A stretch of DNA of 64,000 bases from an uncultured Phycisphaerales bacterium (GCA_963844715.1 CAWJPJ010000007.1:896001-960000), one strand, 5' to 3'; positions 23,332-64,000 are shown, counted from the first letter of the stretch. Program-made: numbers and translations. Notes: generated by a model not told the origin, from the sequence alone.

Positions 23332-23639
23332 GTAGACCTCCTACCTGCATTGGTGAACGCCTCTTGTCCGTTACGACCGGACCAAAACCGCAGAGCATGG
23401 GCGAGGGCTGTGCGCGCTCGGTGGTGATGGAAGTGCGATTTGCGCGGACTGAAGGGATGAGGAGCAGGTTCTGTCTGAAGCGAGAATCCGCTCAGAATGT
23501 GCTTGACAATTTAGCCACGAGTTAGGTAAATGTACGGTATCGCGTTCCTGCCCAGGACGGAGCTTGGGTTCATCGATACCGCCGTTTGCCGACCGAGCGC
23601 TGGCGCGGCGCGATTGTTTGCACTACGGGAGGAATTGCC

Positions 23640-24717: not shown

Positions 24718-24736
24718 TCAAGCTAAAGGAGAAGCC

Positions 24737-25458: not shown

Positions 25459-25496
25459 ATCATCGAGTAGCAGAAATTCATGATGGGAGAAAGACG

Positions 25497-26192: not shown

Positions 26193-26267
26193 CGCCCCGC
26201 CCGACTCCGGGCGCAAAAACAAACCCGACGGGGGAACGGACGGTCCCCAGCCGGGTTGTGCGAGCCG

Positions 26268-26513
26268 CTACTTGGACTCGCTCTTTTGTTGCAGTTCGTG
26301 GATCGCCTCGAACGTCTTATCCGCGACCTTTGCCAGCACCAGCAGATCGTCGCGGCCGAAACTGTCGGTGCTTTGCCACGTGCCTTCATCGCCGCGGTAC
26401 AGCCGCTGAAACGTCACGTTGTACCGAGCGCCGCTCTCCGTTTCGTTCTGCCAAATGGCGGCTTTAACCGTGCCGATCCGGACTTCGCTAATGGGTTTCT
26501 GCTTCGTAGCCAT
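26268..26513 (-). CDS. Small putative ssDNA-binding protein of mobile elements
   Basis: KPISEVRIGTVKAAIWQNE...YNVTFQRLY...WQSTDSFGRDDLL; GGAG RBS upstream. Confidence 0.6.
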   Translation of the reverse strand: MATKQKPISEVRIGTVKAAIWQNETESGARYNVTFQRLYRGDEGTWQSTDSFGRDDLLVLAKVADKTFEAIHELQQKSESK

Positions 26514-26803
26514 GTGAGACTCCTCTCTAAAAGGGTTTGATTGGTCCGTTCACCTCGGCGTGACGGACAACAAACCCTTATGAGGAGTCGGAAGCCAGTC
26601 CGCAGCGGCAAGCGCCGGGAGCGAAAAACAGCGAGGAGAATGACAGGCGCGGCGGAGGCCCTTTTCCGCAATCGATACCGCTCTCTGGCCAGGAAACAGT
26701 TCCGCCATAAGGCGGGTCGAAACGTGGCCAGGAGCCGACTCGAGAAAGACCCTCGCTCCCCGTTCGCGCACAACCTCCAACTCGGTGTAAGATTATTACT
26801 CCG

Positions 26804-29095: not shown

Positions 29096-29409
29096 ACCAA
29101 AATCTCAGGCAAATTGTCGACACTTGCGAACTTCCCGATGACGCATTGAAGCAAGTTCCGTCATCGCCTCGCACATCCGCGCGATAAATTCGGCCGGCAC
29201 GTGACAATGAGTTGCGCGTAAGCTGTTATCTAATCACAAAACGCTTTACTTGTTTGCCCAACGTCTGTAAATTAATTCGCGCAAGCGATAGTATCAGTCC
29301 ACGGTTGGGCATTTTTGGGGCTGCAGGGACGGGGTTGTTAACACGTCTGGCGTATTGGTTGCTGCTACCCTCGAATACTTAGGCTTAATTCCTCCTGGAA
29401 GGAGGGGTC

Positions 29410-44400: not shown

Positions 44401-47400
44401 CGACTCTCAAGGAAACCAGTGGACTTTCACGCCGAATGGCGGCGGATACACGGATCCGGCCGGAATTTTCGGCGCCCTGACCATGGGAACCGACGGATTT
44501 ATCTACACCGATACCGACGGTACCGCGCTATTTCAATTCCAGCGGCCAACTTGAGAAAATCGAGGATCGGAACGGCAATGCGCTCGACATTACGTACGCC
44601 GATGGCTTGATCGCGGAGGTTTACGATAACGCCGATCCCTCCAGAAGCCTCGCCTTCACTGCTACCGACGGCCATATCACGTCGATCACCGACTTCACGG
44701 GCCGTACCTGGAGCTATACGTATGCGACGGCCGCCAATCCAAATACGGATGAGACCACGTATTTCCTGGCTTCTGTAACGACCCCGTCCGATGACAGTAC
44801 CCCCGCGAATACGCTTTCCTATACCTACAGCACGTCCGCGCCCCTGTTCGGTTTGATGACGGCCATCACCGAGTCATCGGACAGCAAGTCAATCCAAGTC
44901 GGCTACTATCCCAACGGGCAGGTCTTCAGCGTTACCGACCCGGAAGGCAACGTACAATATTTCTTCTATGACTCGGCCCACAATTCGGCCACATATGTCA
45001 ACGGAGATGATCAGGCCACCGTCAGCGAATTCGATTCAAACGGCTTCACGATCAAGCAGATCAATCCCGATCTCACCCAAGTTAAATCCACCTATTCCAC
45101 CAGCGATGAACTCCTTTCGCAGACCAATGCGATGGGCCAGACCGAAACCTTTACCTACGATTCCAACGGCAACATCACCGCGTCCACCGCTTTCGACGGC
45201 GTCACCACGGATGCCACTTACAACTCGTTTGCCGAGCCGATCGAGGTGACTCTCCCTGGCAGTCGCATCACCACCTACACTTACGATTCCAACGGCAACA
45301 TGCTCTCCATGACGGACGCCGTGGGAGACGAAACCACATTCACTTATTATTCCGACGGACTGGCGGAGACCGTCACCGCGCCCAACGGAAACGTCTCCGG
45401 CGCGATACCCGCCGATTTTACCACCACGTACACCTACAATGCCGCGGGGCAGGTCCTCACCACCACCACTGGCCTGCCGTCGGCCGCGGTCATCGTTAAC
45501 ACCTACGACGATCAGGGCGACCTGACCAGCACGGCTCACGTCGTCGGTAATACCACGTCGTTTCTCACTTCGTATGCCTACAACCTCTTGGGCCAGCTCC
45601 TCTCCATCACCGGCCCTAATCCAGACGTCAACGGCGTCACCGGCGAATCTCAGGCCGTCTCGTCCGTGACATACGTCCCTTCCGAAGATGAGACGATCAC
45701 GACCGACCCCAATGGCAATTCCACGGAAACGTTCCTCAACGGAAACAATCAAGTTGTCAAGGTTGTGAATCCCGACGGGTCCTTCGTCACCTACGCGTAC
45801 GATGCGGCCGGAAACCTGGTCGCCATGACGGATGCGCGGGAACACGACGAAGTACGTCTACAATTCCATGGGGCAATTGATTCAAACTCTGAACCCCGAC
45901 CCCGCGCACGGGACAGGCGGGAACCTCGACTTCGTCGACGTATAATGCGGACGGCCAGGTCACCAGCACGACCGACGCTGATGGGAACACAACCTCTTAT
46001 ACCTATCAATCCAACGACTGGCTTGCATCGGTCACCGACCCAGATAGCGGCGTCACCACCTACACATATGACTCGCTCGGCGACGTGGCCGGTGTTACCG
46101 ATCCCGATGGGAACGTTACCTCTTACACCTACGACGACGATGGCCGGGTTCTGACCAAAACGGTCGGCTCAAGCATCTGGACCTACTCCTACGACGCGGA
46201 TGGCAATCTGGCCTCGACAACCGACGCCGATGGTCGCACGATCGACTACGTCTACGACTCGCTGGACCGCCTCACGCAGGAAAACTGGATGGGGTCCGGC
46301 GACTCGATCGTCAACAGCATCGACTACACCTACAACGCCGACGGGCAGGTCACCAGCGCTAGCGACGATCAAAGCGCCGAGTCCTACACGTACGACGGGG
46401 ACGGAAACGTCTCGTCGGTCAGCAACTCCGGAACGCCGGATGCGCCCACTGTCGTCGAGAATGAGCTTTATGACCCCGATGGCAATCTGCTTTCGCTTTC
46501 GGCCGCCGTCAGCGGCACGACCGAACTCACCAACGACTACCAGTACAACGCGCTCGATGAAATGACCCAGGTGACTCAGACCGACCTGGGCGCGGATGCC
46601 GAGCAGGCGAACTTCACGTACAACACGGATGGCCAGTTCGAGGGGATCGACCTATACGATGGCGGCGCGGGCGTCGCCTCCGCCCACTATCAGTACAACT
46701 CACTTGGTGAGGTCACCTCCCTCGACTGGGTGAATGCGAGCGACCAAAGCGCCATCAATTCATACGGCTACACATACGATCCCAACGGTCAAATCACGAG
46801 CTTTACCTCTACGGATGGAACGATCAACTACACTTACGACCATGATGGGGAGCTTGTTGGCGCCACCGGTACCGGTCTGCCAAGTTCGGACTCTTACGCC
46901 TACGACGCCAACGGGAATCGGAACAGCACGGGTTACACGACTGGAACCGATAACGAGCTTACTTCCGATGGAACCTATGACTATGCGTACGACGCGGATG
47001 GAAATCTGATCACCCAAACGACCATCGCCACGGGCGCCACCGAAAACTTCACCTGGGATTACCGCAACCGCCTCACCGAGATCACCTACAAGAATTCGAG
47101 TGGTACGACCACGGGGACGGTCCAGTACACGTACAACGTCTTCAATCAACGGATCAGTCAGAAAGTCACGAATGGGTCCGGGACCGTCACGCTGGACGAA
47201 GATTACATTTACGACCTATCCGGCAACCTCATCATGGTCACGACTCCCTCGGGCACTATTACGGACCGCTACCTATTCGGTCCCGGTACAAACCAGGCCC
47301 TGGCCGACACAACCTCTTCGGGCACTACCTCATGGATGCTGGCCGACCAGCAGGGGACGGTTCGCGATGTAATCGATTCCGGAGGCTCGGTGACCGATCA

Positions 47401-48205
47401 CATTGTTTACGATCCGTATGGAAATATCCTCAGCCAGACCAATCCCGCGAACCAGCCGCGTTTCGGGTTCGATGGCATGCAATTGGATCAAGCCACTGGA
47501 TCGTATTACGACAACGCCCGCTACTACGATTCGTCGACCGGAACATTCATCAGCCGGGATCCGCTCGGATTTGGCGGGGGAAGTTCCAATCTGTACGATT
47601 ACGTTAGCAATAAGCCGACGAAGCTTAGTGATCCAACCGGGATGGGCGAAGTCTTAATTGGACTTGGGGGAATATTTGGTTTCGCCGATCCTTTCGGGTG
47701 GGAAGGAAATGGCACCGCTGACTTCGCCATCGGATGGGGGCCGGGCGGCGTCACAGTTGGCGCCTTGGAAAGTATCGCAACCGGTCCAACTGTCGGAGCC
47801 GCGTTACCCTCCGGAGGTGCCGGGGTAGATGTGGGATATTATCCTAGCGTAACGAACGTCACCCAACTTTCCGGATTAGGGTGGGCGGTTGGCGCCGCCG
47901 GGGGACCAGGAGATAGTGATGTTTGGTGGGAACCACCCGCTGGTCAACCTGGTGGTGTTTGGGTTGGTACACCGGTCGGCGTGGGAGCTACTGCTGGAGC
48001 GTACGCCACTGTCGCCGGATCATACACATGGACACAAGACCTGACTCCGGGCGTCAAAGCGTTCTTTCAAAGTCTTTCGAATGTGCTTAATCAGGCTTCA
48101 ACTGTAGCGCAGATTGAGTCACCACTTCCTATCCCCGGCCCAGCCGCTGTCGCTCTTCAATATGCAAGCTCGGCACTCAAACACGTCGCGCGTGTGTTTA
48201 AATAG
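29410..48205 (+). CDS. Giant (~18.8 kb) surface protein/RHS polymorphic toxin, broken into about 10 ORFs by frameshifts
   Basis: Consecutive overlapping + ORFs: EALESRILLS export motif; GGGI beta-helix repeats with DQRG..DIGA.E and SLRDAI modules; FN3; PA14 (YSVRWTGQV...ADDGARLWVDG); FG-GAP (GDFNGDG); transglutaminase-like; GDPVN DUF6531; YD repeats; RHS core ending LSDPTG; Gly-rich C-terminus. Confidence 0.8.
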
Positions 48206-48214
48206 GCTTTATCA

Positions 48215-48535
48215 ATGACATATAGACTTCCAAAATATGCAAAGGTCTTCGTTTGGTGCATCTTTTTGTTCTGGTTGCCAGGTATGGCTCTTTATTGGAA
48301 TTTGTCCTCGCCATCCCACGAGGCGCGGACGAACCCTGACCAAATAGAGTGGCACAACAAGGGTCGGGTCTTTTACGTAAACCGTGTCGAGCTGGTTTCG
48401 TGTGAGGTTTTGTTTTGGGTGTCGTTTTCTTTGACGGTCCTGCTTGTTGTACCTCTGGTAGTCCACCGCCATGTCAAGAAGGGGAAAGATGGGGGAAGTG
48501 CCACGGAGGAAAAGTCCGGATGGGATAAGTCCTAG
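48215..48535 (+). CDS. Candidate immunity protein (two TM helices) for RHS toxin 1
   Basis: Starts 9 bp after the toxin stop; small protein with two hydrophobic segments. Confidence 0.55.
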   Translation: MTYRLPKYAKVFVWCIFLFWLPGMALYWNLSSPSHEARTNPDQIEWHNKGRVFYVNRVELVSCEVLFWVSFSLTVLLVVPLVVHRHVKKGKDGGSATEEKSGWDKS

Positions 48536-48686
48536 GTATTGAAGTGGCTGTAATGGCCCAGGACGTTGTCGGGTGATTTTGTTCGGGAGAATTTCGGGAT
48601 TTTGGATATGTGCATGACATTGATTGAGGATACAATTGATGCGAATGGTCTCAGAACAGCGACTTTGGGGAGTTATTTTCTGATCC

Positions 48687-51600
48687 TTGCGCGAGGAAGA
48701 CGATATTTCCATCCCGAATATTGGCCTGCCCCTCGATTTTAGCCGCTATTACTATTCCGGCTCGACCACCGACGTTGGCTTCGGCGCCGGCTGGACCGAT
48801 AGTTACAGCGACACGATGGTCACGCAGGAAAATGGCGACGTCCTTTGGACCGATTCCCAGGGTGATCAGCACACCTTCACGCCCGCCACCGGCGGTGGTT
48901 TTACCGACCCCGCGACCATCTTTGGAACTCTCTCCCTGGTGGACGGCCAGTACATCTACCGCGACACTGACGGAACCGAGCCGCATCTTCAATGCCTCGA
49001 CGGGCCAGCTTGTCGAAATCGAAGACGCCAACGGCAACGCCCTCGATATCACGTACAACGAAGATGGAACGCTCGCCTCCGTCTACGATGCGGCCGATCC
49101 CTCGCGCAGCCTGACCTTCACCGACACCGGCGGACACATTACCGCCATCACCGACTTCACCGGCAGGATCTGGAAATACTGTTATCAAACGGCCGTTAAT
49201 CCCGTGACTGATCAAACTGTGTATCTGTTGACGTCGGTCCACACTCCGTGCGACTCCAACACGCCGGCGCAAACCACTAACTATGGTTATGACACATCCG
49301 TTTTCGGCTACAGTTCCGCCGCCGGCAGCATCAATGCGTCTTCGCCTCTCTTCGGGCTGCTCAGCTCGGTTACAAATGTCTCCGATGGCGCATCAGTTCA
49401 AATCAGTTACTACCCCGACGGGCGAGCGTTTACCGTTACCCTGCCCGACGGCGGAATCGAATCGGTCTTCTATGACACGTATCACGATACATCCACCTAC
49501 GTCAATGAACTGGGACAGCCGACGCTTGTCGAAATGAATTCCGCTGGCGATGTCGTCAAGCAGATCAACCCCGACCTGACTCAGATCGATTCCACCTACA
49601 ACGCCAACGGCGAGCTTACCTCCGAGACCAACGCGATGGGTCAGACCGAAACGTTTACCTACGACTCCAGCGGCAACGTCACCTCATACACGGCCTTCGA
49701 CGGCGTCACGACGGATGCGACCTACAACTCGTTTGCCGAGCCGACGCAGGTCACCCTCCCCGGCGGACGCGTCACGACTTACACCTACGATTCTCATGGC
49801 AATCTTCTCTCCATGACGGATGCCGCCGGCGACGAAACGACCTACACTTATGTCCCCACCGACGGCACGGATCACACCAACGGCCTGGTTGAAACCGTCA
49901 CAGCGCCCAACGGCAACGTCGAAGGCGCAACCGCCTCCGACTTTACCACCACATTCACCTACAACACCGCCGGGCAGACGGTTACCGCCGCAAACGGCTT
50001 GGACCAAACCGTCACCAACACCTACGACTCCGCCGGCGATCTGACCAGCATGACCGACGCGATGGGCAACACGACTTCATATACCTACAACCTGTTGGGT
50101 CAGCTGCTGTCCACCACTTCCCCCGACCCCGGAGTCACAGGCGAGACCCAGCCGGTCTCCAATATCGCCTACGACCTAGCGGACAATTCAACCACCACCA
50201 CGGACCCCAATGGCAACATCACGCAGACTTTCTTCAATGGCGATAACCAGGTCATCAAGGTCGTCAACCCCGACGGGTCATTCATCAGCTACGCGTACGG
50301 CGCCGCCAGCAATCTCGTCGCGATGACCGATTCGCGCGGGAACGCGACGAAGTATGTTTACAACTCCATGGGCCAACTAGTCGAGACGTTGAATCCCGAC
50401 GGCACCTCCACGACCCAGACGTACAACGCTGCCGGCCAGGTGACCAGTTCCACCGATGCCGACGGGAACACCACCTACTACTCGTATCAATCCAACGGCT
50501 GGCTGGCGTCGGTTACTGATCCGAACGGCAATATCACGACCTACGGCTACGATTCCGTCGGCGACGTCACCAGCGTAACCACTCCCTTAGGTACGACGAC
50601 GTACACGTACGACGACCTCGGCCGCGTCACTCAGTCCGAAGATCCCACCGGTCTTGTAACCGAGACTACTTACGACGCCGACGGCAATGTCACCCAGCAA
50701 ACTCAGTACAACGTCTCCGACCCAAGCGACACGCACGCGACCACCACGGTCTACGATGTGCTGGATCGCCCGATCGAAGTGACCGACCCGGCGGGGAATC
50801 ATACCGACACTTCCTACAACGCCGATGGAGAAGTCATCAGCACCACCGACGCCGCGGGGGCGACGACCAATTACGCCTATGACGATGACGGGCGCTTGAT
50901 CTCCACCACCGGTCCATCCCCCGACGGCGGTACCACGCCGGGCCCGGTTACCAGCTATCTCTACGATGCCGACGGGAACCAAACGGAGGTAACTGACCCC
51001 CTCGGAAACACGACGGCGTATATCTACAACAACATGAACGAACTGATTTCGGAAACCGATCCCGCCCCCAGCACCGGCGCGGCCGCCCCGGTTACGACGT
51101 ATCAGTACAACACGGATGGCGAGCAGACCGCCATCACCGATCCGGACGGGAACACCACCTTCTACCAGTTTAACTTCATGGGCGAGCAGGTCTCGGAACT
51201 GAACGCCGCGGGATCGAAGTGGACCTGGCAGTATGATCCCAACGGCAATCTCATCTCCGCCACGGACGCCGACGGCCGCACCGTCGACTACACCTATAAC
51301 TCCCTCGGCGAGGTGACCAGCGAAAACTGGGTCGGGGGCGACTACACCATCAACTACACATACAACAGCCTCGGCCAGCTCACCCAGGTTACCGATCCGG
51401 ACTCCACGTACAATTACACGTACAACAGCGTCGGCCAGGTAATCCACGCGAACAACTCCGGCACGCCTGGCGTCCCCACAACCACGTTGAATACCAGCTA
51501 CGACGGTTTCAATAACCTCGCCAGCCTGAGCGCCCTGATCGGCTCAACCACCGACTTTACAAATTCATATAGTTACGATTCACTGGCCGATATGACCCAG

Positions 51601-53514
51601 GTCGCCCAATCCGGCTCCGCCGTCACCTCGAAGCAGGCGAACTTCACGTACAACGCTTTGGGCCAAATCACATCCGAGCAATTATCCGCGTCATCCGCGG
51701 TGGCAAACGCTTCTTTCGGTTATAACGACGCAGATCAACTTACTTCACTTACGTACACTCGCGCCAGCGATTCCTCCACGATCAATTCCTACGGCTTGAC
51801 CTACAACTCCGACGGACAGATCACCGCGGAGACCAACTCCGACGGCACGATCGACTATACCTACGACCACGACGGCCAGCTGACGGGCGCCAGCGGCTCG
51901 GGCCTGCCGTCGAGCAACTCCTATTCCTACGACGCGAACGGCGACCGCACGTCCACCGGCTCCGCCGCCGACACCACCGGCACGAATAACGAACTGACCA
52001 GCGACGGGACATACGACTATACCTACGATGCCGATGGCAATCCGATTACGCAGACGACCATCGCCACGGGCGCGACGGAGAACTTCACCTGGGATTACCG
52101 CAACCGCCTGACGGGTATCGTATTTAAAAATTCCTCGGGCGTAGTTACCGAGGAAATCTCGTACACTTACGACGCGTTCAACCAGCGGATCAGCCAGACG
52201 GTGAAAAACGGCTCGGGTACGGTGACGTTCGCCGAGAACTACGTGTATGACTCGGCGGGCGACTTGGTGATGACCCTGGACGCCTCCGGCAGCGTCACGG
52301 ATACCTTCCTCAATGGACCCACGGGGCAAACCCTTGCCGCCGACGCCGGCAGCGGCAATGTGACCTGGCTCCTGGCCGACCAGCAGGGATCGGTCCGGGA
52401 TGTCATCAATGACTCTGGCGCGGTTGTCGACCACATCGTCTACGACTCCTACGGCAACATCGTGAGCCAGAGCAGCTCCGCGAACCAGCCGAGATTCGCG
52501 TACGCGGGAATGCAATTGGATCAAGCCACCGGCTTGTACTACGACCACGCGCGCTATTACGATTCGTCAACCGGAACATTCATCAACCAGGATCCGACCG
52601 GGTTTGGCGGAGGGACGACGGATTTGTATGACTATGTCGGCAACGACCCGGTCAATTTCGACGATCCGACGGGGACGTTTTCATACCGGCTTCAGATGGT
52701 GGAAGAACAGGCCGCGCAGGGAGATCACGATGTGCTCACGCAGCTGCAAAACCTGATGCTTGTTCCACCCACGCAAAGTCCGGCCTGCTTCTCGGGGGAT
52801 GACAACGGCGCGACGACAGGTTCGAACGGAGGCACGGTATTCTCGAACGCGCAACAGGGCGATTCATGGTGGTCGAACTTCTGGAATGCCGGGACTAACC
52901 CCAATTCTTATGGGGAGGCGTCGAACGTAACGCAGCCGAATTCCATTGTGTATACGTCAGCGGCACTTCGCGCGGCGGGAGTGGTTTTGGTAACATACGG
53001 CACGGGGGGCATCGCGGCGGAGGTGTATGATGCGTACGTTAGTGCCGAGGAGGCGGGAATCGCCGCAAGTACAGTGGCAAGCGCTGTGGGAAATGCGGCG
53101 ATACAAGCCACTTCCGGACAGCCCTTCTCTTGGACTTCGTTTGTAGCGAGTACAGTTACGGGCGCTGGTGCTGGAGTGGCTGCAAACGTGGTAGGCAACA
53201 TGCTTGCCGCAGAGAGTGAAGGCGCTGCCGGAAGCACGCCGGTAGGCCGTTCGGGTTCTCCCCTCGGGTCGGTTCAGGGGAATGCTGACGCCACAATCGG
53301 CGGTCGTACCTTTAGCGGCCACGCACTTGACGGAATGCAGGCCGACGGTATTCCCCCGTCCGTTGCCGAGAACACGATCCAAAACGGCTCGTCGATGGTG
53401 GGTAAGAATCCTGGGACGACCGCGTTTTATGATCCGGCTAATAACGTCACCGTCATAACTAACTCAACTACGGGCAAGGTGGTTACTGTCTCCCGTGGTC
53501 TGATCAAGCAGTAG
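48687..53514 (+). CDS. Orphan RHS module with a DUF4258/BECR-like nuclease C-terminus (frameshift near 48980)
   Basis: Starts abruptly inside DUF6531 (DISIPNIGLPLDFSRYY) with no signal peptide; YD repeats; FDDPTG; C-terminus SGHALDGMQADGIPPSVAENTI...VVTV. Confidence 0.85.
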
Positions 53515-53528
53515 AAGGCAGGTCCGTC

Positions 53529-53912
53529 ATGGCTGAGGATTGGAAGAAGGAATACGACCAACGTCAATATCGGTTGATGGCTGACCAATTGCAGCGGTTT
53601 GAAGAAGGTCAACTCGGTCTTGTCTCTCTGATCGGCAGCCTAAAGTCTTTGCTTTCAGTTCTTGAAGCAACAGATGAAGCGTGGAAAGACGACTTCCGAA
53701 GTGAGTGGGGAACTTTGGAGGTGGCATATGCCATGATGCTTGACCAGAAGGGAGACGGCCTCGTGCCAAACGAGCAGGCGGCGCTTAATGATCTCGCCAA
53801 CCGTGCAGATATCCGTCAAGCAGTCCGGAACATGCAGCGGCTTGTGCAGGAGCGCATTGACACGACGGCTGGCGCGGAAACTGACGCCGGGGACGGTGCG
53901 ATTGCCGGCTGA
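53529..53912 (+). CDS. Candidate immunity protein, paralogue 1
   Basis: Directly after the toxin; 127 aa; MAEDWK.EYDQRQYRLM...WGTLE. Confidence 0.7.
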   Translation: MAEDWKKEYDQRQYRLMADQLQRFEEGQLGLVSLIGSLKSLLSVLEATDEAWKDDFRSEWGTLEVAYAMMLDQKGDGLVPNEQAALNDLANRADIRQAVRNMQRLVQERIDTTAGAETDAGDGAIAG

Positions 53913-53934
53913 AAGCGACTAAAGGTGGGTCGTC

Positions 53935-54318
53935 ATGGCTGAGGATTGGAAGGCGGAATACGATCAACGCCAGTATCGGTTGATGGCCGACCAGTTGCAG
54001 GGATATGAAGAAGGCAAGTTAAACCTCGCCTCTTTGGTCAGCAGGTTGGAAGCGTTGCTCTCGGCTCTAGAGGCACCCGATAAAGCGTGGAAAAATGACT
54101 TCTGGAGCAAGTGGGGAACCTTGGAGACGGTGTACGCGGTAGCGCTTGACCGCAACGAACAAGGTCTCGCGCCGGATGCCCAAGCGACGATCAATGATCC
54201 CTCTCACCGGGCGCTCATCAACGAGGCAGTCCAGAATCTCCGGCGGCTCGTACAGGACCGCATCGACACGACGGCCGGCGCGGAAACGGACGCCGAGGAT
54301 GGCGCGACCGCCGGCTGA
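53935..54318 (+). CDS. Candidate immunity protein, paralogue 2
   Basis: Same length and clearly homologous to 53529..53912. Confidence 0.7.
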   Translation: MAEDWKAEYDQRQYRLMADQLQGYEEGKLNLASLVSRLEALLSALEAPDKAWKNDFWSKWGTLETVYAVALDRNEQGLAPDAQATINDPSHRALINEAVQNLRRLVQDRIDTTAGAETDAEDGATAG

Positions 54319-54500
54319 AAGCCACCCATTGCAAACCCGGTAGGTTGACGGATCGCGCTAACTTCCCGCCCTGTCGGGAGTTGCCGGCGTCGTTGCCGCC
54401 GCGCAAGGTGTAAACACCTTGCCTCATCAGGTCACAGGTTGCGCCAGATCATTGTGGGACAGAGACTTACAAAAAGCGCACCTTGGTTCCTTTTACCTTG

Positions 54501-54599
54501 CCGTCTGATGTTTGTATGACCTTCTGCCCCCAGGTCAGCGCTGCAAGTGCCGGAATTCGCTGCAAATACCGACAAAGCTCATACATCCCTTTTATCTTG
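54501..54599 (+). repeat. 99-bp unit, copy 1, bounded by nic-like motifs
   Basis: CCGTCTGATG...CCCTTTTATCTTG, identical to 56077..56175. Preceded by CTTTTACCTTG and ends in CTTTTATCTTG. Confidence 0.85.
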
Positions 54600-54680
54600 T
54601 ATTCCATGAGCAAACTTCTCCTGGGTTAGATTCTCCGGGAGTGTCGAGACCCGTTGGTCCCTTTTTGCGGGAGGTTTGCC

Positions 54681-55828
54681 ATGGTATTCGTTGGATTGGA
54701 TACGCATCATGAAACGTCGACCTGTTGCGTGCTGGATGATCGAGGCCAGCGACTGGAGGGTCGGACGATCAAGGGTTCTTGGACGGAAACGGCACGGTAT
54801 CTTCAGGCGCTGCAACAGCGTGATGGTCGGCCGATGGCAGTCTGCTACGAGGCATCGTGCGGGTACGGAGCGTTGCACGATCACCTGCGGACATTCTGCC
54901 AGCAGGTGGTGGTGGCGCATCCTGGCCGGGTGCGATTGATCAGCCGATCCAAGCGGAAGAATGATCGGGTTGACGCCCAGAAGCTGGCCAAGCTGTTGTA
55001 TCTGGACGAGGTTCCGCAGGTGCATGTTCCATCGGCCGAGGTTCGTTCGTGGCGGGAGCTGATCGAGCTGCGTCGTCGCCAGGTGCAGACGCGCACTCGG
55101 GTGCAGAGCCGGATCCGCGCGTTGCTGCGGACGTACAACGTGTGCATTCCCAAGCAGGGAAAGGAACCCAATCGCCCGTCTCGGAGGTGAAGTCTGCCGT
55201 CGTTGCGAGTGAAGCGTGCGAGCCGTTTAAGATTCTGTGGACGGATCGGGGCCACCGCTGGCTCAAGTTGCTGCAATGGCCAACGCCGGCGGTGGCGTTG
55301 CGGTGCGAATTGTTGGTCGATGAGTTGGAGCAGACGGAACGCGCCATCAAGCGGGTGACGGCGGAGTTGGACAAGATGGCGGCCGGAAACGCCGGCGTGC
55401 AATTGCTGTGCACGATCCCCGGCGTGGGATGCCGGACCGCCGAGGCGGTGGTGGCGTATCTGGACGATCCAGATCGTTTTGCCCGATCCAACCGGGTGGG
55501 ATCGTACGCGGGTCTGGTGCCGTGCCAGGACAGTTCCGGGGGCACCGATCGACTGGGCCATATCACCAAGGAGGGCCCGGCGACGATGCGCTGGCTGCTG
55601 GTGCAATCGGCCTGGCAGGTGGTGCGGCGCGAGCCGTTCATGCGGGCGTACTTTCATCGCGTGGCCGGCGGGCAGAAGGAAAATCACAAGAAGGCGCTGA
55701 TCGCCACGGCGCATAAGCTGCTGCGTTGCATGCATTCGATGCTGCGAACGGGCGAGGTGTGGAATCCGCCGAAGGACGATGCCGCGAACGAGGCGAAGTC
55801 CGCCGCGACGGAAGAGAAGAGCGGCTAA
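54681..55828 (+). CDS. IS110-family DEDD recombinase (frameshift near 55180)
   Basis: FVGLDTH; CYEASCG; KNDRVDA; TIPGVG; YAGLVP..DSSGG; GHITKEG. Confidence 0.93.
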
Positions 55829-56060
55829 AGGAAAAAGATGGACCCTTGTAGGCATCGGTAAGCGCCGATGATCGAGATGGGCACGGGATTGATAACCGGA
55901 CTCCGCGGCAAGGCATGGGACCATACCCAGGATCCCGATACCTTGAATGGAGCCGGTTCGGATCACGAAGAGTGGCACGCCGTCGATAAGTGTTTTGACG
56001 GATGATGCCGGATAGATGCGTGGAACATCCCGAGCCTGAATCTCGTCCCCGTCTTGACAC
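55829..56060 (+). ncRNA. Putative bridge/seek RNA region of the IS1111 element
   Basis: About 230 nt of structured non-coding DNA after the transposase. Contains TACCTTG (55939-45, target-like), GGCA (55974-77, complement of TGCC) and ATAGATG (56012-18, same as the donor end 56070-76). Confidence 0.55.
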
Positions 56061-56076
56061 GGTTTGCTCATAGATG

Positions 56077-56175
56077 CCGTCTGATGTTTGTATGACCTTC
56101 TGCCCCCAGGTCAGCGCTGCAAGTGCCGGAATTCGCTGCAAATACCGACAAAGCTCATACATCCCTTTTATCTTG
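56077..56175 (+). repeat. 99-bp unit, copy 2
   Basis: Identical to 54501..54599. Confidence 0.85.
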
Positions 56176-56577
56176 TATTCCATGAGCAAACTTCTCCTGG
56201 GTTAGATTCTCCGGGAGTGTCGAGACCCGTTGGTCCCTTTTTGCGGGAGGTTTGCCATGGTATTCGTTGGATTGGATACGCATCATGAAACGTCGACCTG
56301 TTGCGTGCTGGATGATCGAGGCCAGCGACTGGAGGGTCGGACGATCAAGGGTTCTTGGACGGAAACGGCACGGTATCTTCAGGCGCTGCAACAGCGTGAT
56401 GGTCGGCCGATGGCAGTCTGCTACGAGGCATCGTGCGGGTACGGAGCGTTGCACGATGTCGCGGGTGCGCCAAAACCGGCCATCAATGGGCGCTCGAAAA
56501 CCGGCCAGTGTTGTGACGCTTCGTATACCTCATCCGTTCAGTTCCATGCAACTTTCTGTTGAGTTATTGGCCCCGCA

Positions 56578-57455
56578 TCAGGACGCCTGATCGGCAGGCA
56601 CCCCAGCACCAGAAGATACTGGCTTTCTGCCACGGTGTCTTCCGGAGGGGAGGCCCTTCATCGTCGGCGGTACTCCGCCGTCCTTTTGAATTTGCCTTTG
56701 TGGAAGGCTTCGCCTCCACGGCCTCCCCGTGCCGCCGTGGCGCAGGCGATAGCTTTTGCCGGTGATGTTGATGATGGTGGCGTGCTGCAGGAAGCGGTCG
56801 AGGATCGCCGTGGCGGCCGGCACGTCGCCGATCAGTTTGGCCCAGTCTTCCAGCGGCCGGTTGCTGGTCATCATCGTCGAGCGGTTCTCATGGCGGCGCA
56901 TGATGATCTCCAGCAGGCATTCGCCGGAGCGACGCGGAAGTTGCTTCATGCCCATGTCGTCGATGATGAGCAGGTCGGGCTTGAGATAACGATTCAGCGT
57001 TTTGTCCTGCTGGCCGAGTTCCTCGTCGCCGAGGAAGTCGCGGGCCAGGTCGAAGATGGAGCGGTACAGCACCAGGAATCCGGCTTTGATCGCCTGATGC
57101 CCGATGGCCTGGACCAGGAACGTTTTGCCGACGCCGGGTGGGCCCAGCAGCAAGCACATCGGCTTTCTCGCGGATGAACTGACAACCGGCCAGGTCGTGG
57201 ATCTGCTTGCGCTTGATCGACGGGTTGAAGGAGAAGTCGAACTCGTCGAGGTTTTTGACTTCGCCGAACAGGCGGCCTTGACGCGGCGGCTACCAATCGG
57301 CTGGACCGCACGTTCAGTTCATCCTGAAGAATCAGTTCCAGAAACTCGGCGTGATCGAGCCGATTGCCGGCTGCCTCGCTCAGGCGGACTTCAAGGCTCT
57401 GGGCCAGGCCCGAAAGCCGAAGCTGTTTGAGCGTCTGCAACAATGAAGGTCTCAT
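56578..57455 (-). CDS. istB: IS21 helper ATPase IstB (frameshifted)
   Basis: GPPGVGKT; DLLIIDDMG; TSNRPLEDW; AILDRFL; ITGKSYR. Confidence 0.9.
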
Positions 57456-58994
57456 GGGATGGACTCCTGTGAAGGTGGTTGTTGGGTAATGGCCTGTCGC
57501 ACGAACTGCCCGTAATCGCCCAGGTCACGGATGATCGGATGTTCCTGGATGAACTCGAAGTTCTGCTGAATGGCGGGCGGATTCTGTTGTTCGATGAGTT
57601 GCCGCAATGAACGCAGGTGATACGCCCCATGGCCCTGGGCGACTTGGCAGGCCTGCTCGATGACGCGGCGGGAATGCTTGTTCGTCAGGGACAACAGCCC
57701 CATGAGCACGCGCACGCCTTCGATGCCGCGATTCTGGAGCATCGACTGCGCCCACTGCGTGGCGTGCGGGCCGATGGATTCGACCCGGCGCAGCAGCCAG
57801 GCCGTTCCGCGTTCGATGCCGCTGATCTTCTCCGGCAGGATGTGGGCATCCAGCGTGGAGAAGGTTCCCGGCGGACGCTGCACATGCACGGCGATCGGCC
57901 GCATCTTCTGATCCAGCAGTCGGACCAGTCCGGCCATCCCAGCGCGCCCAGAGCTGCTGGCCCAAAAACTCCGGCGGCACCGAGTAGTACGCGCCCTTGA
58001 TCTCCACGTGCCCATCCCGATGCACGCTCCGCAGCGCTTCTGGAAACAGATCGAACCGGGCCGCCGGCAACGGCAACAGCGCCGGCTTCTCCGCCTGCTC
58101 GAAGACTTCCTTCACCTGCCGGCGCGTCGTGCCATGGATGCGCGTGTCGGCGACGGTCGCTTCCCAGGTCTGCAGATGCTGGTTCTGCTCGGCCAGGAAG
58201 TGAAGGTCCGTCCCTTGAGGGCGTTGCCCTTCACATAGCCGATGCCCCGTTCGATCTTCCCCTTGTGCCGCGGCGTGTACGGCTTGGTCGGCAGGATGGC
58301 GATGCCGTAATGCTCGGCAAACGAGCGGACCTTGGGACACAGCTCCGGGTCGAACCAGTCCGCCCGCCTCACCGCCGCCCGGAGATTGTCGATCACCAGC
58401 GTCCTCGGCACGCCGCCGAAGTGCGCGAAGGCATTCTCCAGGCAACGCAGAAAGTCATCGGTGGTCTGACGATGCACCGCCTCGGCGTACCCCTTGCGGC
58501 TGTGGGACAGCACGATGCGGAAGACCCAGGTGCTCTTCCGTTTGCCATCCGGCACCGACGATGGGCGCGCCCCGGCCAAAGTCCACCTGCGCCTCGGCCC
58601 CCGGCTCGCATTCCATCCGCCGGAACGGCGCCGGCGCCGCCGCAGGTCAACTTCTTGACCAGCCGGCGCACGCTGTAATAGCTGCCGGCATAACCGTGGT
58701 CGGAGCAGAGGTCCTGATAAATCCGCTGGGCGGTCAGCCCCATGCTCCAGCTTCTGAAGAATCACTTCACGCCAGGGCGCTGGCGGCGCGTGACCAACCC
58801 GGTGGGCGACGCCTCTCCGAGCCGAGGGGGGCGCGCTGGCCGGTTTTGAATCTTCCCTGCGCCGCCAGCCGAAGATGGCGTCCGACCGTCTCCCGGTGAA
58901 CGCCAAGTTGCCGGGCGATGTGCCGGTTGGACCAGCCATTGCGTGCAAGTGCCAGAATTGCTTGTACTTCCGCCATCTTGAGTTGATTCGCCAT
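57452..58994 (-). CDS. istA: IS21 transposase IstA (several frameshifts)
   Basis: N-terminal HTH (SNRHIARQLGVHRETV); LSHSRK; FGGVP..LVIDNL; KGKIERG. Confidence 0.9.
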
Positions 58995-60317
58995 CGTACC
59001 GTCGTCTCCCGGCGAGAGCCGGAAGCCAACGGTAATGAACAAATCTCCTGTGCCTCAAAATGGCCGGTTTTGGCGCGCCCCTCAGCTGGCCGGTTTGTGC
59101 GCGCCCGCTGACAGCACGATCACCTGCGGACATTCTGCCAGCAGGTGGTGGTAGCGCATCCTGGCCGGGTGCGATTGATCAGCCGATCCAAGCGGAAGAA
59201 TGATCGGGTTGACGCCCAGAAGCTGGCCAAGCTGTTGTATCTGGACGAGGTTCCGCAGGTGCATGTTCCATCGGCCGAGGTTCGTTCGTGGCGGGAGCTG
59301 ATCGAGCTGCGTCGTCGCCAGGTGCAGACGCGCACTCGGGTGCAGAGTCGGATCCGCGCGTTGTTGCGGACGTACAACGTGTGCATTCCCAAGCGGGGAA
59401 GAAGATTACCGCTCGACCGTCCGGAGGTGAAGCCTGCCGTCGTGGCGAGTGAAGCGTACGAGCCGTTTAAGATTCTGTGGACGGATCGGGGCCATCGCTG
59501 GCTCAAGTTGCTGCAATGGCCAACGCCGGCGGTGGCGTTGCGGTGCGAATTGCTGGTGGAGGAACTGGAGCAGACGGAACGGGCCATCAAGCGGGTGACG
59601 GCGGAGTTGGACAAGATGGCGGCCGGAAACGCCGGCGTGCAATTGTTGTGCACGATCCCTGGGGTGGGCTGTCGGACCGCCGAGGCGGTGGTGGCATATC
59701 TGGACGATCCAGATCGTTTTGCCCGATCCAACCGGGTGGGATCGTACGCGGGCCTGGTGCCGTGCCAGGACAGTTCCGGGGGCACCGATCGACTGGGCCA
59801 TATCACCAAGGAGGGCCCGGCGACGATGCGCTGGCTGCTGGTGCAATCGGCCTGGCAGGTGGTGCGGCGCGAGCCGTTCATGCGGGCATACTTCAATCGC
59901 GTGGCCGGCGGGCAGAAGGAAAATCATAAGAAAGCTTTGATAGCCACGGCGCATAAGCTGCTGCGTTGCATGCATTCGATGCTGCGAACGGGCGAGGTGT
60001 GGAATCCGCTGAAGGACGATGCCGCGAACGAGGCGAAGTCCGCCGCGACGGAAGAGAAGAGCGGCTAAAGGAAAAAGATGGACCCTTGTAGGCGTCGGTA
60101 AGCGCCGATGATCGAGATGGGCACGGGATTGATAACCGGACTCCGCGGCAAGGCATGGGACCATACCCAGGATCCCGATACCTTGAATGGAGCCGGTTCG
60201 GATCACGAAGAGTGGCACGCCGTCGATGAAGTGTTTTGACGGATGATGCCGGATAGATGCGTGGAACATCCCGAGCCTGAATCTCGTCCCCGTCTTGACA
60301 CGGTTTGCTCATAGATG

Positions 60318-60911
60318 CCCTGCGTTGAGAACAGAATTTCCCCGATTGTCACCGATTCTTTTTTACCCATGTCGATGTGCGACGAAGGGTCTGATTCATC
60401 CGCGAATGAAAAACTGATGCCGACTTTGCGGTACACGCCTAGGACTTGATCGGTATGGATTGGGCCGAAGTAGCGGCTATCGAAGCTGCGTACGGCGGCG
60501 GAGCCGACGAGCAGTTCATCGGCGGCGAGTCTGCGCGGCTGACCAGTGCGGCAGCGGCCGACCAGCGGAATCGAAAGCGGCAATGGGACCTACACGAAAG
60601 CCGTTGACGCGCAGCTCGCCGTCCAGCGTCGAGACAAAGTCGCCGCCGGCGGCCAGCACGTGCTTAAGCAGGATCAGATTCGTCGGCTCACCCCGCAGAC
60701 GCGTATAGGAATAGGCGCTGGCGGGCAGCGCAAACGCGACAATACTGCCGCGCTGAATACGACCGCCATGGTAAAGATAGAAGCCAATTGGAACACTCGG
60801 CGTGCGGTTGTAAATCACCAGCGGCGGATGCGGCAGCGACGCGCTGGCAATCAGCGCAGCGATAACGCCTGCGATGACCCGCATACGGCGGAGGCCTCGA
60901 TCAATTCTCAT
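60318..60911 (-). CDS. traF: TraF, copy 2 (same frameshift; 3' tail cut at the nic/IS junction)
   Basis: Translation identical to 21685..22080. Confidence 0.8.
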
Positions 60912-61387
60912 GGGTTTGCTCCTGCAAGAATCGCAACAGGGAATCCCGATTCAGCCGCCTGGGCTCTTGGCCGGCGCAACGACTGGGCCGCAAGACGGTA
61001 ATAAATCAGCGGAACGCGGCATGGATCGATCCGCGACTGCTGAATCTCGCCAATCAGTTGGTCGGCTCGGTCGACAACGCCGCGGTCTTTGCCGATGCAG
61101 CGGCAATTCAGGAACGCGTGCACGTTCACGGCTGGGTCGATGCACGGCAGCCGAAAGCCGCTCTGCCCTCTCTCCCGGGCCTGGGCGACAGCAAAGGCGG
61201 CGAACTGCCGCCGCGGCGAGACCCGCGCCCACCACAACACAGCAAACGCCTCGTCGGCGCGGAACCAATAATGCGTCAAACCATCATCAATGCGCCGCAC
61301 CTGAACCGGGCTTCCGAAGCGCAGGCGAACGCTGAAGCGGTCCTTAACCTGACAAGCGGTCAGCCGTGTCCAATCTGAGTGGGTCAT
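60908..61387 (-). CDS. DUF2840-like protein, copy 2
   Basis: Translation identical to 22077..22556. Confidence 0.7.
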   Translation of the reverse strand: MTHSDWTRLTACQVKDRFSVRLRFGSPVQVRRIDDGLTHYWFRADEAFAVLWWARVSPRRQFAAFAVAQARERGQSGFRLPCIDPAVNVHAFLNCRCIGKDRGVVDRADQLIGEIQQSRIDPCRVPLIYYRLAAQSLRRPRAQAAESGFPVAILAGANP

Positions 61388-62163
61388 GACGGGTTTCGCA
61401 CGGATGGGTTGAGACTGGCGTGAGCGGGCTGGGTTGGATGCAGGTATGGCAGCAAAGCAGCGGCCTGCATGGGCAATCGCGGCGGAAGACGCAGGTGGTT
61501 CTTGGCCGCGTGCGCCCGAGCCGGCCCCGTGTAAATCACCCGATGATCGTGCGAAGCATCTGCGTGCGTTGCCGCCGAAGACCTCTCCTCATGCCGGCGA
61601 TTGGCATGGGTGGCGAAAAGCACCTCGTCACACCAGGCTTGAATGCGCGCCGAGGTTTGGTCATTCAGCGCGGGCTCATACCTCTGGGTAAGCGATCCGC
61701 CATGCAGTGGGCTGGCGGGCCCACGGAGCTGCGCATGGCCCACCAAAACGATGTGCAAGCCGACACCACCGCGCAGTAGATCCAGCCGACGGAGCAACTT
61801 TTGCCAATGCGCCAGCGCCAAGGCCTGTCCGTCGGGAATCGCCGCAAGGTGCTCGGCATTGCGCCGCCGGCACAATTCGTCCCCAATCGATAGCTCCACG
61901 CTCTCCAGGGAGTCGAGGATGACCGTGGCATACTCGTGCAGCCCAACGTACAGGTCTTGCAGCGCCTGCATAACTTGATCGAAGCGGCGGCATACCGGAA
62001 ATCGAGTGCAAGCAATATGGTTGGTGCTCTCGTCAGTGGGAATGAGCACCGGCGCCCGCAGGCCCGCCGCCAAAGTCGAGGTGCCGATTCCGCGAATGCC
62101 ATAGAACAGAATCCGCCGCGGCCGCTTGACTGAACGAGTGTGGATTTGATCGAACAATTTCAT
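61384..62163 (-). CDS. AAA_24 ATP-binding protein, copy 2 (intact, 259 aa)
   Basis: Single ORF with the motifs listed for copy 1. Confidence 0.85.
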   Translation of the reverse strand: MKLFDQIHTRSVKRPRRILFYGIRGIGTSTLAAGLRAPVLIPTDESTNHIACTRFPVCRRFDQVMQALQDLYVGLHEYATVILDSLESVELSIGDELCRRRNAEHLAAIPDGQALALAHWQKLLRRLDLLRGGVGLHIVLVGHAQLRGPASPLHGGSLTQRYEPALNDQTSARIQAWCDEVLFATHANRRHEERSSAATHADASHDHRVIYTGPARAHAAKNHLRLPPRLPMQAAALLPYLHPTQPAHASLNPSVRNPS

Positions 62164-62472
62164 GTAGACCTCCTACCTGCATTGGTGAACGCCTCTTGTC
62201 CGTTACGACCGGACCAAAACCGCAGAGCATGGGCGAGGGCTGTGCGCGCTCGGTGGTGATGGAAGTGCGATTTGCGCGGACTGAAGGGATGAGGAGCAGG
62301 TTCTGTCTGAAGCGAGAATCCGCTCAGAATGTGCTTGACAATTTAGCCACGAGTTAGGTAAATGTACGGTATCGCGTTCCTGCCCAGGACGGAGCTTGGG
62401 TTCATCGATACCGCCGTTTGCCGACCGAGCGCTGGGCGCGGCGCGATTGTTTGCACTACGGGAGGAATTGCC

Positions 62473-63549
62473 ATGTTGGGCGCTGCTCTTTCTGAAGAAT
62501 TGCCTGCGGCCTCACTGTTTGGGCCTGCCCAAATGGCGTTGGAACGGGCGCAACGATTGTTTCGCCGCGCCCAACGCAGCGTGACCCATACCCTTCGCAT
62601 TGCCTCCCGTGGTGATTTGATGGGTCCAACTCCGCAAGCCAGGCAAATACGGTTTGTGCCGTGCACGTGGGGCATGCGACGAGACGACTACCGCTGGCGC
62701 GGCGATGCCAATCGCGATTTTGCCGCGCTGCGGAGCGGCGCTTCAACGATGGGCTGGGCGCTGGTTCATGCGCCGCTGCGCAACTGGAGCGAACTGTTGC
62801 CAGGGACGATGCCGGATGTCATGGGCACGCGATCGGACCTCTACCTGGCGGACTACTGGCTGCTGACGGTGCATTACTTGGTCTGGTCCAAGCGTCTGCC
62901 CTATCCAATCAAGGCCAATTGGCTGCACGGCGCGAGCATTCACGATCGGCCATTCAGCTTTACCAGCGAACTGCCAACCGATTTGACGGAAGCATCGCTG
63001 GATGCGCTGATTTTGTTTCGTGAGGCGGCAGTGACTCTGCCCCGAAACGGCGGGGATATCCCGATCGCGCCCGCTGAGCCGCCCGTGCTTCACGATGGCC
63101 ACTGGCATTTGATGACCCGCGAGGTTCCAACCAGCGCGGCGAATCAAACTCTACCCACTGCCGAATCCCTGGAGCCGCCGCCTCAAGCCGCCGTTTTGAA
63201 AGAGGCAATGGACGGAAGTGACGTTCTTCCCGAATTGAATGACCAGACCTTTACGGTCTGCTGTGGTGGCAAAAAGTATCGCTTTACCGCTCGGAACAAA
63301 CAGTTGTTCGCCCTCCTGGATCGAGTCCGCCGTCGCCCTGGTCATCGGGTCTCCTTCGACGATCTGCGCACCACCGGTGACGTTTGGGATGGCTCGCGGG
63401 TGGAAGACAGTTCCATCCGCGGTGCAGTCGCGCGGCTTCGCAAGCTGCTCAAGAACCATGGCATGAGCGCTCTGGCCGAGCGGGTCACGACCGGTACGTA
63501 TCAAGGCCGCGGCTATGTCGTTTTGCAGACGGCAGAAGGACACGACTGA
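62473..63549 (+). CDS. wHTH-domain protein, copy 2 (intact)
   Basis: Inside ORF 62362..63549; GGAGG RBS before 62473. Confidence 0.7.
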   Translation: MLGAALSEELPAASLFGPAQMALERAQRLFRRAQRSVTHTLRIASRGDLMGPTPQARQIRFVPCTWGMRRDDYRWRGDANRDFAALRSGASTMGWALVHAPLRNWSELLPGTMPDVMGTRSDLYLADYWLLTVHYLVWSKRLPYPIKANWLHGASIHDRPFSFTSELPTDLTEASLDALILFREAAVTLPRNGGDIPIAPAEPPVLHDGHWHLMTREVPTSAANQTLPTAESLEPPPQAAVLKEAMDGSDVLPELNDQTFTVCCGGKKYRFTARNKQLFALLDRVRRRPGHRVSFDDLRTTGDVWDGSRVEDSSIRGAVARLRKLLKNHGMSALAERVTTGTYQGRGYVVLQTAEGHD

Positions 63550-63568
63550 TCAAGCTAAAGGAGAAGCC

Positions 63569-64000
63569 ATGTCAATATTCACGGATAAACGAGGGACCGC
63601 AGCGCCACGAACCGTCAAGATTCGCGGCGAGCAGTTTACGCGGCTTTGGCTTACGACCTCCATGTCCCAGGAGACCTTCGCGGCCCGCATCGGAATGAAG
63701 CGCTCCGGGGTATTCCGCCTGCTGCGGCCGGGCGTGCACGCCATGTTCAGCGATAACTTCGCCCGCGTCGCCCAAGCCCTGAACATGACGCCGCGGGAAT
63801 TGAAGGAGCGCATCGGGGTTGGAGAAGTCGTGGTGCGATCGTCCGATGCGGCGTGGCCCAATCTACCAATCGGGCATCAAGGGCCCGGCGCAGCCGCTGG
63901 TCGAGGTCACAAGGTTTCACGGGATCAGCGCGGGTAGCCGCGCCGAGCGCCTGGATGTGGAGCACGGGACGGTGAAGGTGCCCGAAGGGTGGGGGGATTT
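63569..64000 (+). CDS. XRE/S24 repressor, copy 2 (partial, window edge)
   Basis: Matches 24737 onward. Confidence 0.65.

Follow-up and report, generated by a model that had tools for sequence, protein, structure and literature searches.

A predicted RNA-guided insertion sequence of the IS1111 family at candidate nick regions of MOBP-type transfer origins in an uncultured planctomycete

Insertion sequences (ISs) of the IS110 and IS1111 families are under development as programmable recombinases, and the targets they use in nature reveal what elements of this kind evolve to exploit. A 64,000-nt stretch of DNA from an uncultured Phycisphaerales bacterium (GCA_963844715.1 CAWJPJ010000007.1:896001-960000; referred to below as the window) carries two copies of a 1477-bp IS, IS1 (54600-56076) and IS2 (56176-60317). 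Both have CTTTTATCTTG on the left side and CC on the right side. Excising either copy in silico gives CTTTTATCTTGCC, the same 13-mer that is intact at 21476-21488 in a conjugative or mobilizable element (element A), as an earlier note on this DNA had stated. With two or fewer mismatches allowed, this 13-mer has five matches in the window (0.97 expected; five reached in 0 of 100 shuffles). The question raised by the locus is whether the IS is directed to this motif and whether the motif is the site at which a relaxase nicks an origin of transfer (oriT). Sequence comparison suggests that it is: the element is probably an IS1111-family member with a 3' guide RNA programmed for the nick core of RlxS-like (MOBP) transfer origins. 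Coordinates are those of the window (C7:896001-960000 of genome G000) unless a contig is named; C1, C3, C5, C6 and C8 are other contigs of the same genome.

The IS array, the element and its junctions

The two copies belong to an array of the form [X+IS]x2 with a period of 1576 bp, in which each IS follows a segment X of 99 bp (Table 1). The X copies at 54501-54599 and 56077-56175 are 100% identical. Because the left flanks of IS1 and IS2 are one and the same segment, the left flank counts once, and the two window copies, which the earlier note had treated as two hits, are not independent. To the left of the array is an orphan, relaxase-side origin half (54330-54502) which is 84-91% identical to C6:17088-17233 and C6:29250-29395 and 79% identical to a relaxase-upstream region on C8. 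It also matches relaxase-upstream regions in other genomes (L146, L147, L167 and L152); no relaxase gene is found to its left. The motif at its end (54490-54502) is unoccupied and agrees with the guides of the IS, described below, at 10 of 11 positions. To the right of IS1 is again X, the sequence that also follows this second intact motif, CTTTTACCTTG^CC. Segment X has no homolog elsewhere in the genome or among the relaxase loci. The junction between this motif, the first of the array, and X is present without the IS in peat and permafrost contigs (records 11, 12, 20 and 26), so that X is what naturally lies to the right of the motif.

The sequence after IS2 begins CCCTGCG... at 60318 and runs to the end of the window. 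It belongs to a left-truncated second copy of the conjugative element, A', which from the TG (60316) on is 99.8% identical over 5172 bp to 21485-26654 of element A. A' has no relaxase side and starts exactly at the motif. IS1 and IS2 are identical at 449 of their first 450 nt and 91-96% identical over positions 451-1200; they are mosaic and not a fresh duplication. Two histories fit the array: insertions at 54500 and 54599 followed by unequal crossover and precise excision of the first copy, or integration of an X+IS circle at the first motif. The IS21-like element within IS2 has intact terminal inverted repeats and is flanked by a 7-bp duplication, GCACGAT (56451-56457 and 59114-59120). In a peat contig (run X5), a similar IS21-type end breaks segment X at 54593.

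Table 1. Features of element A and of the IS array, in window coordinates
Feature	Position	Strand	Basis or remark
TrbB, element A	16252-17199	-	
IncP-type TraG coupling protein, element A	17710-19584	-	
RlxS-like relaxase with DUF3363, element A	19585-21333	-	
TraF-like S26 peptidase, element A	21330-21752 and 21685-22080	-	Split in two open reading frames
Unoccupied predicted nick region, element A	21461-21488	+	Hairpin CCGGCT-gat-AGCCGG (21461-21475), then CTTTTATCTTG^CC (21476-21488)
Orphan left (relaxase-side) oriT half	54330-54502	+	Homology to C6, C8 and relaxase-upstream regions; ends in intact CTTTTACCTTG^CC (54490-54502)
Segment X, copy 1 (99 bp)	54501-54599	+	Repeat comparison; from just after TG of the first motif to CTTTTATCTTG, left flank of IS1
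IS1, IS1111 family (1477 bp)	54600-56076	+	Subterminal inverted repeats 54604-54615 / 56062-56073; transposase gene 54681-55828
3' non-coding region with predicted seekRNA	55829-56076	+	Alignment with relatives of known target
seekRNA closing stem	55896-55904 / 55949-55956	+	
T guide AAGGCA	55910-55915 (possibly from 55905)	+	Position set by relatives
B guide TACCTTG	55939-55945	+	Position set by relatives
ATAGATG, match to right IS end	56012-56018	+	
Segment X, copy 2	56077-56175	+	Right flank of IS1 and left flank of IS2
IS2, second IS copy	56176-60317	+	Interrupted after its own position 282
IS21-like element within IS2 (2656 bp)	56458-59113	-	istA and istB with several frameshifts; matches to rve, Mu-transpos_C_2 and IstB_IS21
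A', left-truncated second copy of the conjugative element	60318-64000	+	TraF-like peptidase side; starts exactly at the motif; continues to C7:961485

The boundaries given to the IS in the earlier note hold. A third genomic copy (C6:17642-19113, 95% identity) and L170, a complete copy from a metagenome contig of 1631 nt, have the same end bases, and both are without X, so that X is flank and not part of the IS. The transposase of the L170 copy is intact (386 aa). It has the DEDD/RuvC-like N-terminal domain PF01548 (E-value: 1.1e-19) and the C-terminal domain PF02371 (E-value: 1.4e-23) and matches NF033542 ('IS110 family RNA-guided transposase') with 235.5 bits against a cut-off of 140. The IS1 transposase gene lies in two frames, with a frameshift near 55150-55200; in IS2 the C-terminal 307 aa are open, with both Pfam domains. 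The motif GL-P----S(T)G of the C-terminal domain is found as GLVPCQDSSG in the translations. IS1111 elements are characterized by subterminal inverted repeats, terminal extensions of 6-7 and 3 bp, a downstream non-coding region and the lack of target duplication (Siddiquee et al. 2024, PMC11187229). The same traits are seen here. The subterminal inverted repeats are 12 bp long with one mismatch (11-13 bp in the family), the left extension is TATT plus the shared TG and belongs to the 6-7-bp class, the right extension is ATG (3 bp), the flanks of IS1 and IS2 show no target duplication, and 248 nt 3' of the transposase gene are non-coding. This last region extends to 56076, beyond the 55829-56060 that had been given for the RNA. 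The element is a real member of the IS1111 family and is ordinary by mechanism. When 141 genomes of the bacterial family were searched with the IS DNA, the matches outside the source genome were distant relatives only (79% identity or less, over short parts). The contigs of four metagenome runs contained no IS joints, although rare circles or excision products would not be visible in contigs.

Junctions were compared among IS1, IS2, the C6 copy, L170 and contigs from the four soil, peat and permafrost runs. There are six distinct right junctions, with C as the first base in all six and CC in five. IS1 is followed by CCGT... (X, which stands to the right of the intact 54490 motif), IS2 by CCCT... 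(element A') and the C6 copy by CCTT..., where ~400 nt are 83% identical to the sequence on the right of an intact motif at C6:17221, with homology starting from TGCC. L170 is followed by CTCT..., the copy of run X1 by CCCTGCATCC..., which has a 19-nt block in common with the right side of the motif at C6:17032, and the copies of runs X5 and X11 (two studies, one flank) by CCGTCTAACGG.... Four of the six are thus tied to the right side of an intact motif: IS1 and IS2 by identity, the C6 copy by its 83% similarity and X1 by the 19-nt block. Among the four informative left junctions, three (window X, L170 and run X11) end in CTTTTATCTTG^C and differ in upstream sequence. The 47-nt left flank of L170 is identical at 45 of 47 positions, up to the motif, to the relaxase-upstream region of locus L162. 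None of the copies found here sits at a site without motif context. The copies from outside the window support the idea of the earlier note, except at the left junction of the C6 copy, which is off the motif. Free genome sites of the bare 9-mers are near the base-composition expectation (TACCTTGCC, 24 versus 36; TATCTTGCC, 35 versus 24), so the restriction of the IS to origin contexts is not explained by the 9-mer alone.

The motif as a predicted nick region

Element A (16236-26656, ~10.4 kb) encodes, in addition to the proteins in Table 1, a DUF2840 protein and a split AAA_24 protein. Its relaxase matches NF041267 (relax_RlxS; E-value: 3e-92, under the 'exception' cut-off) and DUF3363 (E-value: 7.8e-45), and scores 23.3 bits against PF03432 (cut-off 24.6). 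The 13-mer is on the strand opposite the relaxase gene, 144 nt upstream of its start, and directly follows a hairpin with a 6-bp stem. A paralogous element B (C7:11728-22233, 87-90% identity) has the same hairpin and 13-mer (C7:16966). The layout traF-oriT-rlxS of element A is that of ICEMlSymR7A, in which oriT is located between the traF operon and rlxS (PMC11963761); the available text of the ICEMlSymR7A papers gives the position of oriT and no nick sequence. Both elements look degenerate, with the TraF-like peptidase and AAA_24 genes each split into two open reading frames in A (21330-23331) and an in-frame TAA in the relaxase gene of B (G000:C7:15077-16822). No trbC-trbI genes adjoin trbB.

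In this planctomycete family, conjugative and mobilizable elements of the RlxS-like (MOBP) type are frequent. Thirty relaxase loci from the 141 family genomes were examined on the strand opposite the relaxase gene, over the 700 nt that precede its estimated start. The sequence TTTAYCYTG occurs exactly once at 107-284 nt upstream in 28 of the 30 loci (misses L142 and L153), where ~0.01 per locus is expected by chance. One of the positive loci, L149, is from an unpublished genome (G062); without it, the count is 27 of 29. All five further relaxase matches of the source genome also have the 9-mer. The flanks are of at least four unrelated sequence types, so that conservation extends to the 9-mer and not to its surroundings. 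An inverted repeat 5' of the motif is recognizable by eye in four origin types (A, B, L141 and C6:17032, the last with the outer pair changed from C-G to G-C) and is not apparent on inspection of the C8-type and D-type origins.

The nick consensus of MOBP relaxases is (C/T)ATCCTG(C/T) with a proximal inverted repeat, and an RP4 nick oligonucleotide reads ...CCTATCCTGCCC... (PMC3772185). Three plasmids were inspected among 301 records with a homologous relaxase (30-32% identity). In those of Mesorhizobium and Sphingobium, a hairpin is immediately followed by CTTTATCCTG^CC, ~150 nt upstream of the relaxase gene; that of Rhodopseudomonas has TTTTATCTCG^CC. PLSDB classifies the Sphingobium and Rhodopseudomonas plasmids as MOBP; the Mesorhizobium record is without relaxase typing. 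As two of these three proteobacterial homologs have the exact consensus at the homologous place, the planctomycete motif can be regarded as a diverged form of it. The earlier note's identification of the motif as a conjugative nic site is supported by the 28 of 30 loci, the hairpin and the plasmid CTTTATCCTG^CC: the motif is very probably a nick region, and by homology the relaxase would cut after the TG where the IS is joined.

It is improbable that the motif is targeted as some other conserved element upstream of the relaxase gene, for example a promoter or operator. A promoter could lie at a distance of 107-284 nt from the relaxase start, and the motif read on the relaxase strand includes an A/T-rich hexamer. 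A regulatory role would leave unexplained the occurrence of CTTTATCCTG^CC at the same position behind a hairpin in two proteobacterial plasmids (one of them MOBP-typed), the agreement with a published nick consensus whose proximal inverted repeat has its counterpart in the hairpins of elements A and B (PMC3772185), and the location of the ICEMlSymR7A oriT between the traF operon and rlxS (PMC11963761).

The source genome contains other origins of this kind. One type, CCTTTATCTTG^CA, has an identical 25-nt left context at C1:41936, C3:98873, C5:374322 and C6:168499, each ~140-160 nt upstream of a relaxase homolog. Because of these four, the genome has at least seven RlxS-like relaxase loci. Tandem nick-like motifs ~190 nt apart (a hairpin with CCTTTATCTTG^CT, and CTTTTACCTTG^CC) occur twice, 12 kb apart, in L008 (G000:C6:8000-27999) at ~9010-9235 and in L006 at 1395-1602. 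They are immediately downstream of large tyrosine-integrase genes and upstream of RHS genes. A tRNA search at the repeated origin fragments gave 0 genes, and these fragments are therefore not tRNA-derived attachment sites.

The predicted 3' RNA and its guide segments

The 3' non-coding region is identical across the three genomic copies save for four positions, all of them outside the guides, and L170 has the same guides. Rfam at gathering thresholds gave 0 matches on the window and two loci. The guides were placed without use of the flanks, by alignment to three relatives with recoverable targets; a scan of genome contigs for the conserved right end had given 98 loci with other right flanks, almost all in metagenome-assembled genomes (MAGs) of Planctomycetota. 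The targets of the three relatives are TTGGCTG^GCCT, at two sites (L052/L121), GACCGTG^GCACCC (L106) and GACCATG^GCACCGG (L096), an empty copy of the last being present 1.7 kb upstream. In each relative, the 7-mer preceding a conserved AATG/ACTG is the left target including TG, and TG plus 4-7 nt of the right target have their exact reverse complement in a segment that precedes the inner stem and ends in CA. Because TACCTTG (B guide) and AAGGCA (T guide) occupy these positions in the IS studied here, its predicted cognate site is TACCTTG^CCTT. This is exactly the nick region of the family's commonest origin type, TTTACCTTGccttcc, found in nine of 35 loci (one from G062). In the predicted RNA, the T guide is 5' of the B guide and the two overlap on TG, which is the order of IS1111 seekRNAs, where the top-strand match is 5' of the bottom-strand match and the two overlap in the target (PMC11187229). 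The closing stem covaries by eye among the four RNAs (CUCC/GGAG, CCCC/GGGG, CCTC/GAGG). Together with the independent copies at the same motif, these guides favor the earlier note's proposal that the IS is programmed against oriT.

Two earlier assignments were abandoned. A T guide of GGCAAG, based on the flanks, was dropped because the relatives place the T guide as AAGGCA, and TGGAA, after the donor match, was dropped as a reading of the left IS end because it is kept in relatives with differing left ends. The exact 23-nt guide pattern was found at 0 loci in genome contigs and at one locus in metagenome contigs. The repeat pattern failed to place the left ends of most of 84 family copies; the only length came from the L052/L121 pair (1337 bp). 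Relatives of the IS1111 family that share the right end (L042-L121) are frequent in Planctomycetota MAGs. A few classes recur among their right flanks, for example TCCCCGGAATTC-like and GCACCC-like, which suggests that these relatives target repeated host sequences.

Several observations weigh against a nick-directed IS. With respect to the site, the core is ATCTTG or ACCTTG, which agrees with ATCCTG at five of six positions, with the flanking Y positions as in the consensus. With respect to the copies, all three in the genome are defective (two frameshifts, one IS21 insertion), close copies are few and several come from related habitats, and the left junction of the C6 copy is off the motif, ending in ...AACTAG; this end is read as a later adjacent rearrangement. 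With respect to the guides, position -5 is T in all three canonical left flanks and C in the B guide (a constant rC-dA mismatch), right-flank position +3 mismatches the T guide in five of six junctions, and four perfectly matching genome sites (54490 in the window, two on C6 and one on C8) are empty. One possibility is that perfect sites allow re-excision, so that fossil copies build up at mismatched sites. In an automated screen of 53 non-redundant family copies, the exact T hexamer was in the expected stretch in only seven, so that the guide model depends on the three hand-checked relatives. The screen was crude, and several of its nine 'left junctions' were the guide itself. Finally, the minimum-energy fold pairs the T guide with the B guide; because of this pairing the fold yields no open loop, and it is not counted as evidence for one.

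The association of IS and origin could instead be inherited from one old chance insertion, spread by recombination between origins or by relaxase-mediated joining at nick sites. Several orphan fragments do end exactly at the motif (54330-54502, two on C6, and A'), IS1 and IS2 are mosaic, and one left flank is common to both window copies. This explanation is nevertheless quite unlikely, as the guide segments, placed independently of the flanks, spell the motif, one 11-mer ends the left flank in three unrelated sequences and the right flanks are of six different kinds. Least credible of all is that the mobile unit is the 1576-bp X+IS block, present as a tandem dimer at the first motif (54490), for although the array has this period and a perfect-guide site adjoins the first X on the left, X is absent from the C6 copy and L170, whose IS ends are the same, X is joined to the first motif without the IS in other metagenomes, the inverted repeats lie 4 nt from the end at 54600 as the IS1111 family requires, and no further X-preceded IS was found at an unrelated site in the genome, the genome contigs or the metagenome contigs.

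Proposed mechanism, related systems and neighbouring features

For an IS1111 element programmed for the nick core, insertion would proceed in the following steps. In the excised circular IS, the B guide TACCTTG would pair with the bottom strand of the left target half and the T guide AAGGCA with the top strand of TG+CCTT; both pairings are in print for the family and are inferred here. Strand exchange would take place at the shared TG, the dinucleotide after which MOBP relaxases are predicted by homology to cut, and would leave the IS with the relaxase-side recognition arm of oriT on one side and the leading DNA on the other. The left junction after insertion reads TATCTTG^T, which fits Y-ATCCTG-Y but for the family's own C-to-T change. 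Because this sequence is kept, the IS may travel as the first transferred DNA instead of killing oriT. Recombination between copies in different origins would produce chimeric junctions, which could account for the lost relaxase half of A' and for the [X+IS]x2 array.

A more far-reaching scenario joins these elements, and the chance that all of it is right is rather low. It portrays the IS as an RNA-guided element adapted to riding conjugation by way of a nick core that all related origins must keep. The relaxase arm and the Y at +1 would be kept on insertion, making the IS the first DNA to enter each recipient. The guide mismatch would make insertions at TATCTTG hard to reverse, while perfect sites would be visited transiently. 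Recombination between copies would reshuffle conjugative elements at nick sites and so generate the orphan fragments bounded by nick motifs.

IS4321 and IS5075 are IS1111-family elements that target the terminal repeats of Tn21-family transposons. Like them, the IS described here lives in a functional end sequence of another mobile element; its site is a predicted transfer DNA-processing site and not a transposase binding end, and its host element is of another kind. The IS also resembles ISEc11, ISKpn4, ISPst6 and ISPa11 (Siddiquee et al. 2024, PMC11187229) in its DEDD transposase with GL-P----SG, its subterminal inverted repeats and 6-7/3-bp extensions, and its downstream non-coding region with two short overlapping guide segments, the top-strand match being 5'. 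These elements, too, prefer a short conserved sequence on other mobile DNA (attC, REP, transposon ends). It differs from them in its predicted target, the oriT nick core, and in the constant guide mismatch at occupied sites; its transposase, at 386 aa, compares with the 330-350 aa given for the IS1111 family (PMC11187229). As with the bridge RNA of IS621 (IS110 family), the predicted RNA has target-binding and donor-binding parts and recombination would be at a dinucleotide core. In IS621 and the IS110 family, in contrast to IS1111, the RNA is upstream of the gene, the guide order is reversed and there are no subterminal repeats (PMC11187229).

A parallel in the choice of site is provided by the IME_oriT elements of streptococci and staphylococci, which integrate in a very short conserved part of oriT that includes the nicked site (Libante et al. 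2020, PMC7563843). Like them, the IS is a small element at the nick sequence, here a predicted one, of distantly related elements that serve as hosts. IME_oriT elements use an integrase, encode their own Rep_trans relaxase, carry cargo and occupy MobT-type origins of Firmicutes (PMC7563843), whereas the IS has an RNA-guided DEDD recombinase and no cargo and is found at MOBP-type origins of Planctomycetota. No IS110/IS1111 target at an oriT nick was found in full-text searches of the literature, the supplements of the seekRNA papers, where a target logo could show one, being outside the search. In the available text of PMC11187229, the terms oriT, relaxase and conjugat- occur 0 times. A passage in PMC3832669, considered as a candidate prior report, proved to be unrelated. 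The oriT nick core, very probably the programmed target, is therefore a class not found in print for IS110/IS1111. The earlier note's suggestion that the target class is undescribed stands for these families, and has a conceptual precedent in the integrase-driven IME_oriT (PMC7563843).

If the assignment is correct, the oriT nick core would join REP sequences, attC sites and transposon ends as a fourth class of natural target, and RNA-guided transposition would be tied directly to conjugation. Because the nick core is nearly invariant in the relaxase family, one guide would open many unrelated conjugative elements and new hosts to the IS. It would also account in a simple way for truncated or chimeric conjugative elements whose breakpoint is exactly at oriT.

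The remainder of the window contains several repeated regions. To the right of element A, a TPR / GT41 glycosyltransferase region (26647-30000) recurs on contig C3 at 99.4% identity; all three copies of the repeated element have their right border near 26654. A 63-nt unit occurs in eleven diverged copies across 7 kb (29850-37108), which suggests a very large gene for a repeat-rich surface protein. Two RHS/YD-repeat genes with diverged repeated modules (71-79% identical) occupy 45052-54318. They are followed by two paralogous open reading frames of 127 aa (71% identical, no Pfam matches), which are probably immunity genes, and the orphan origin fragment starts right after these.

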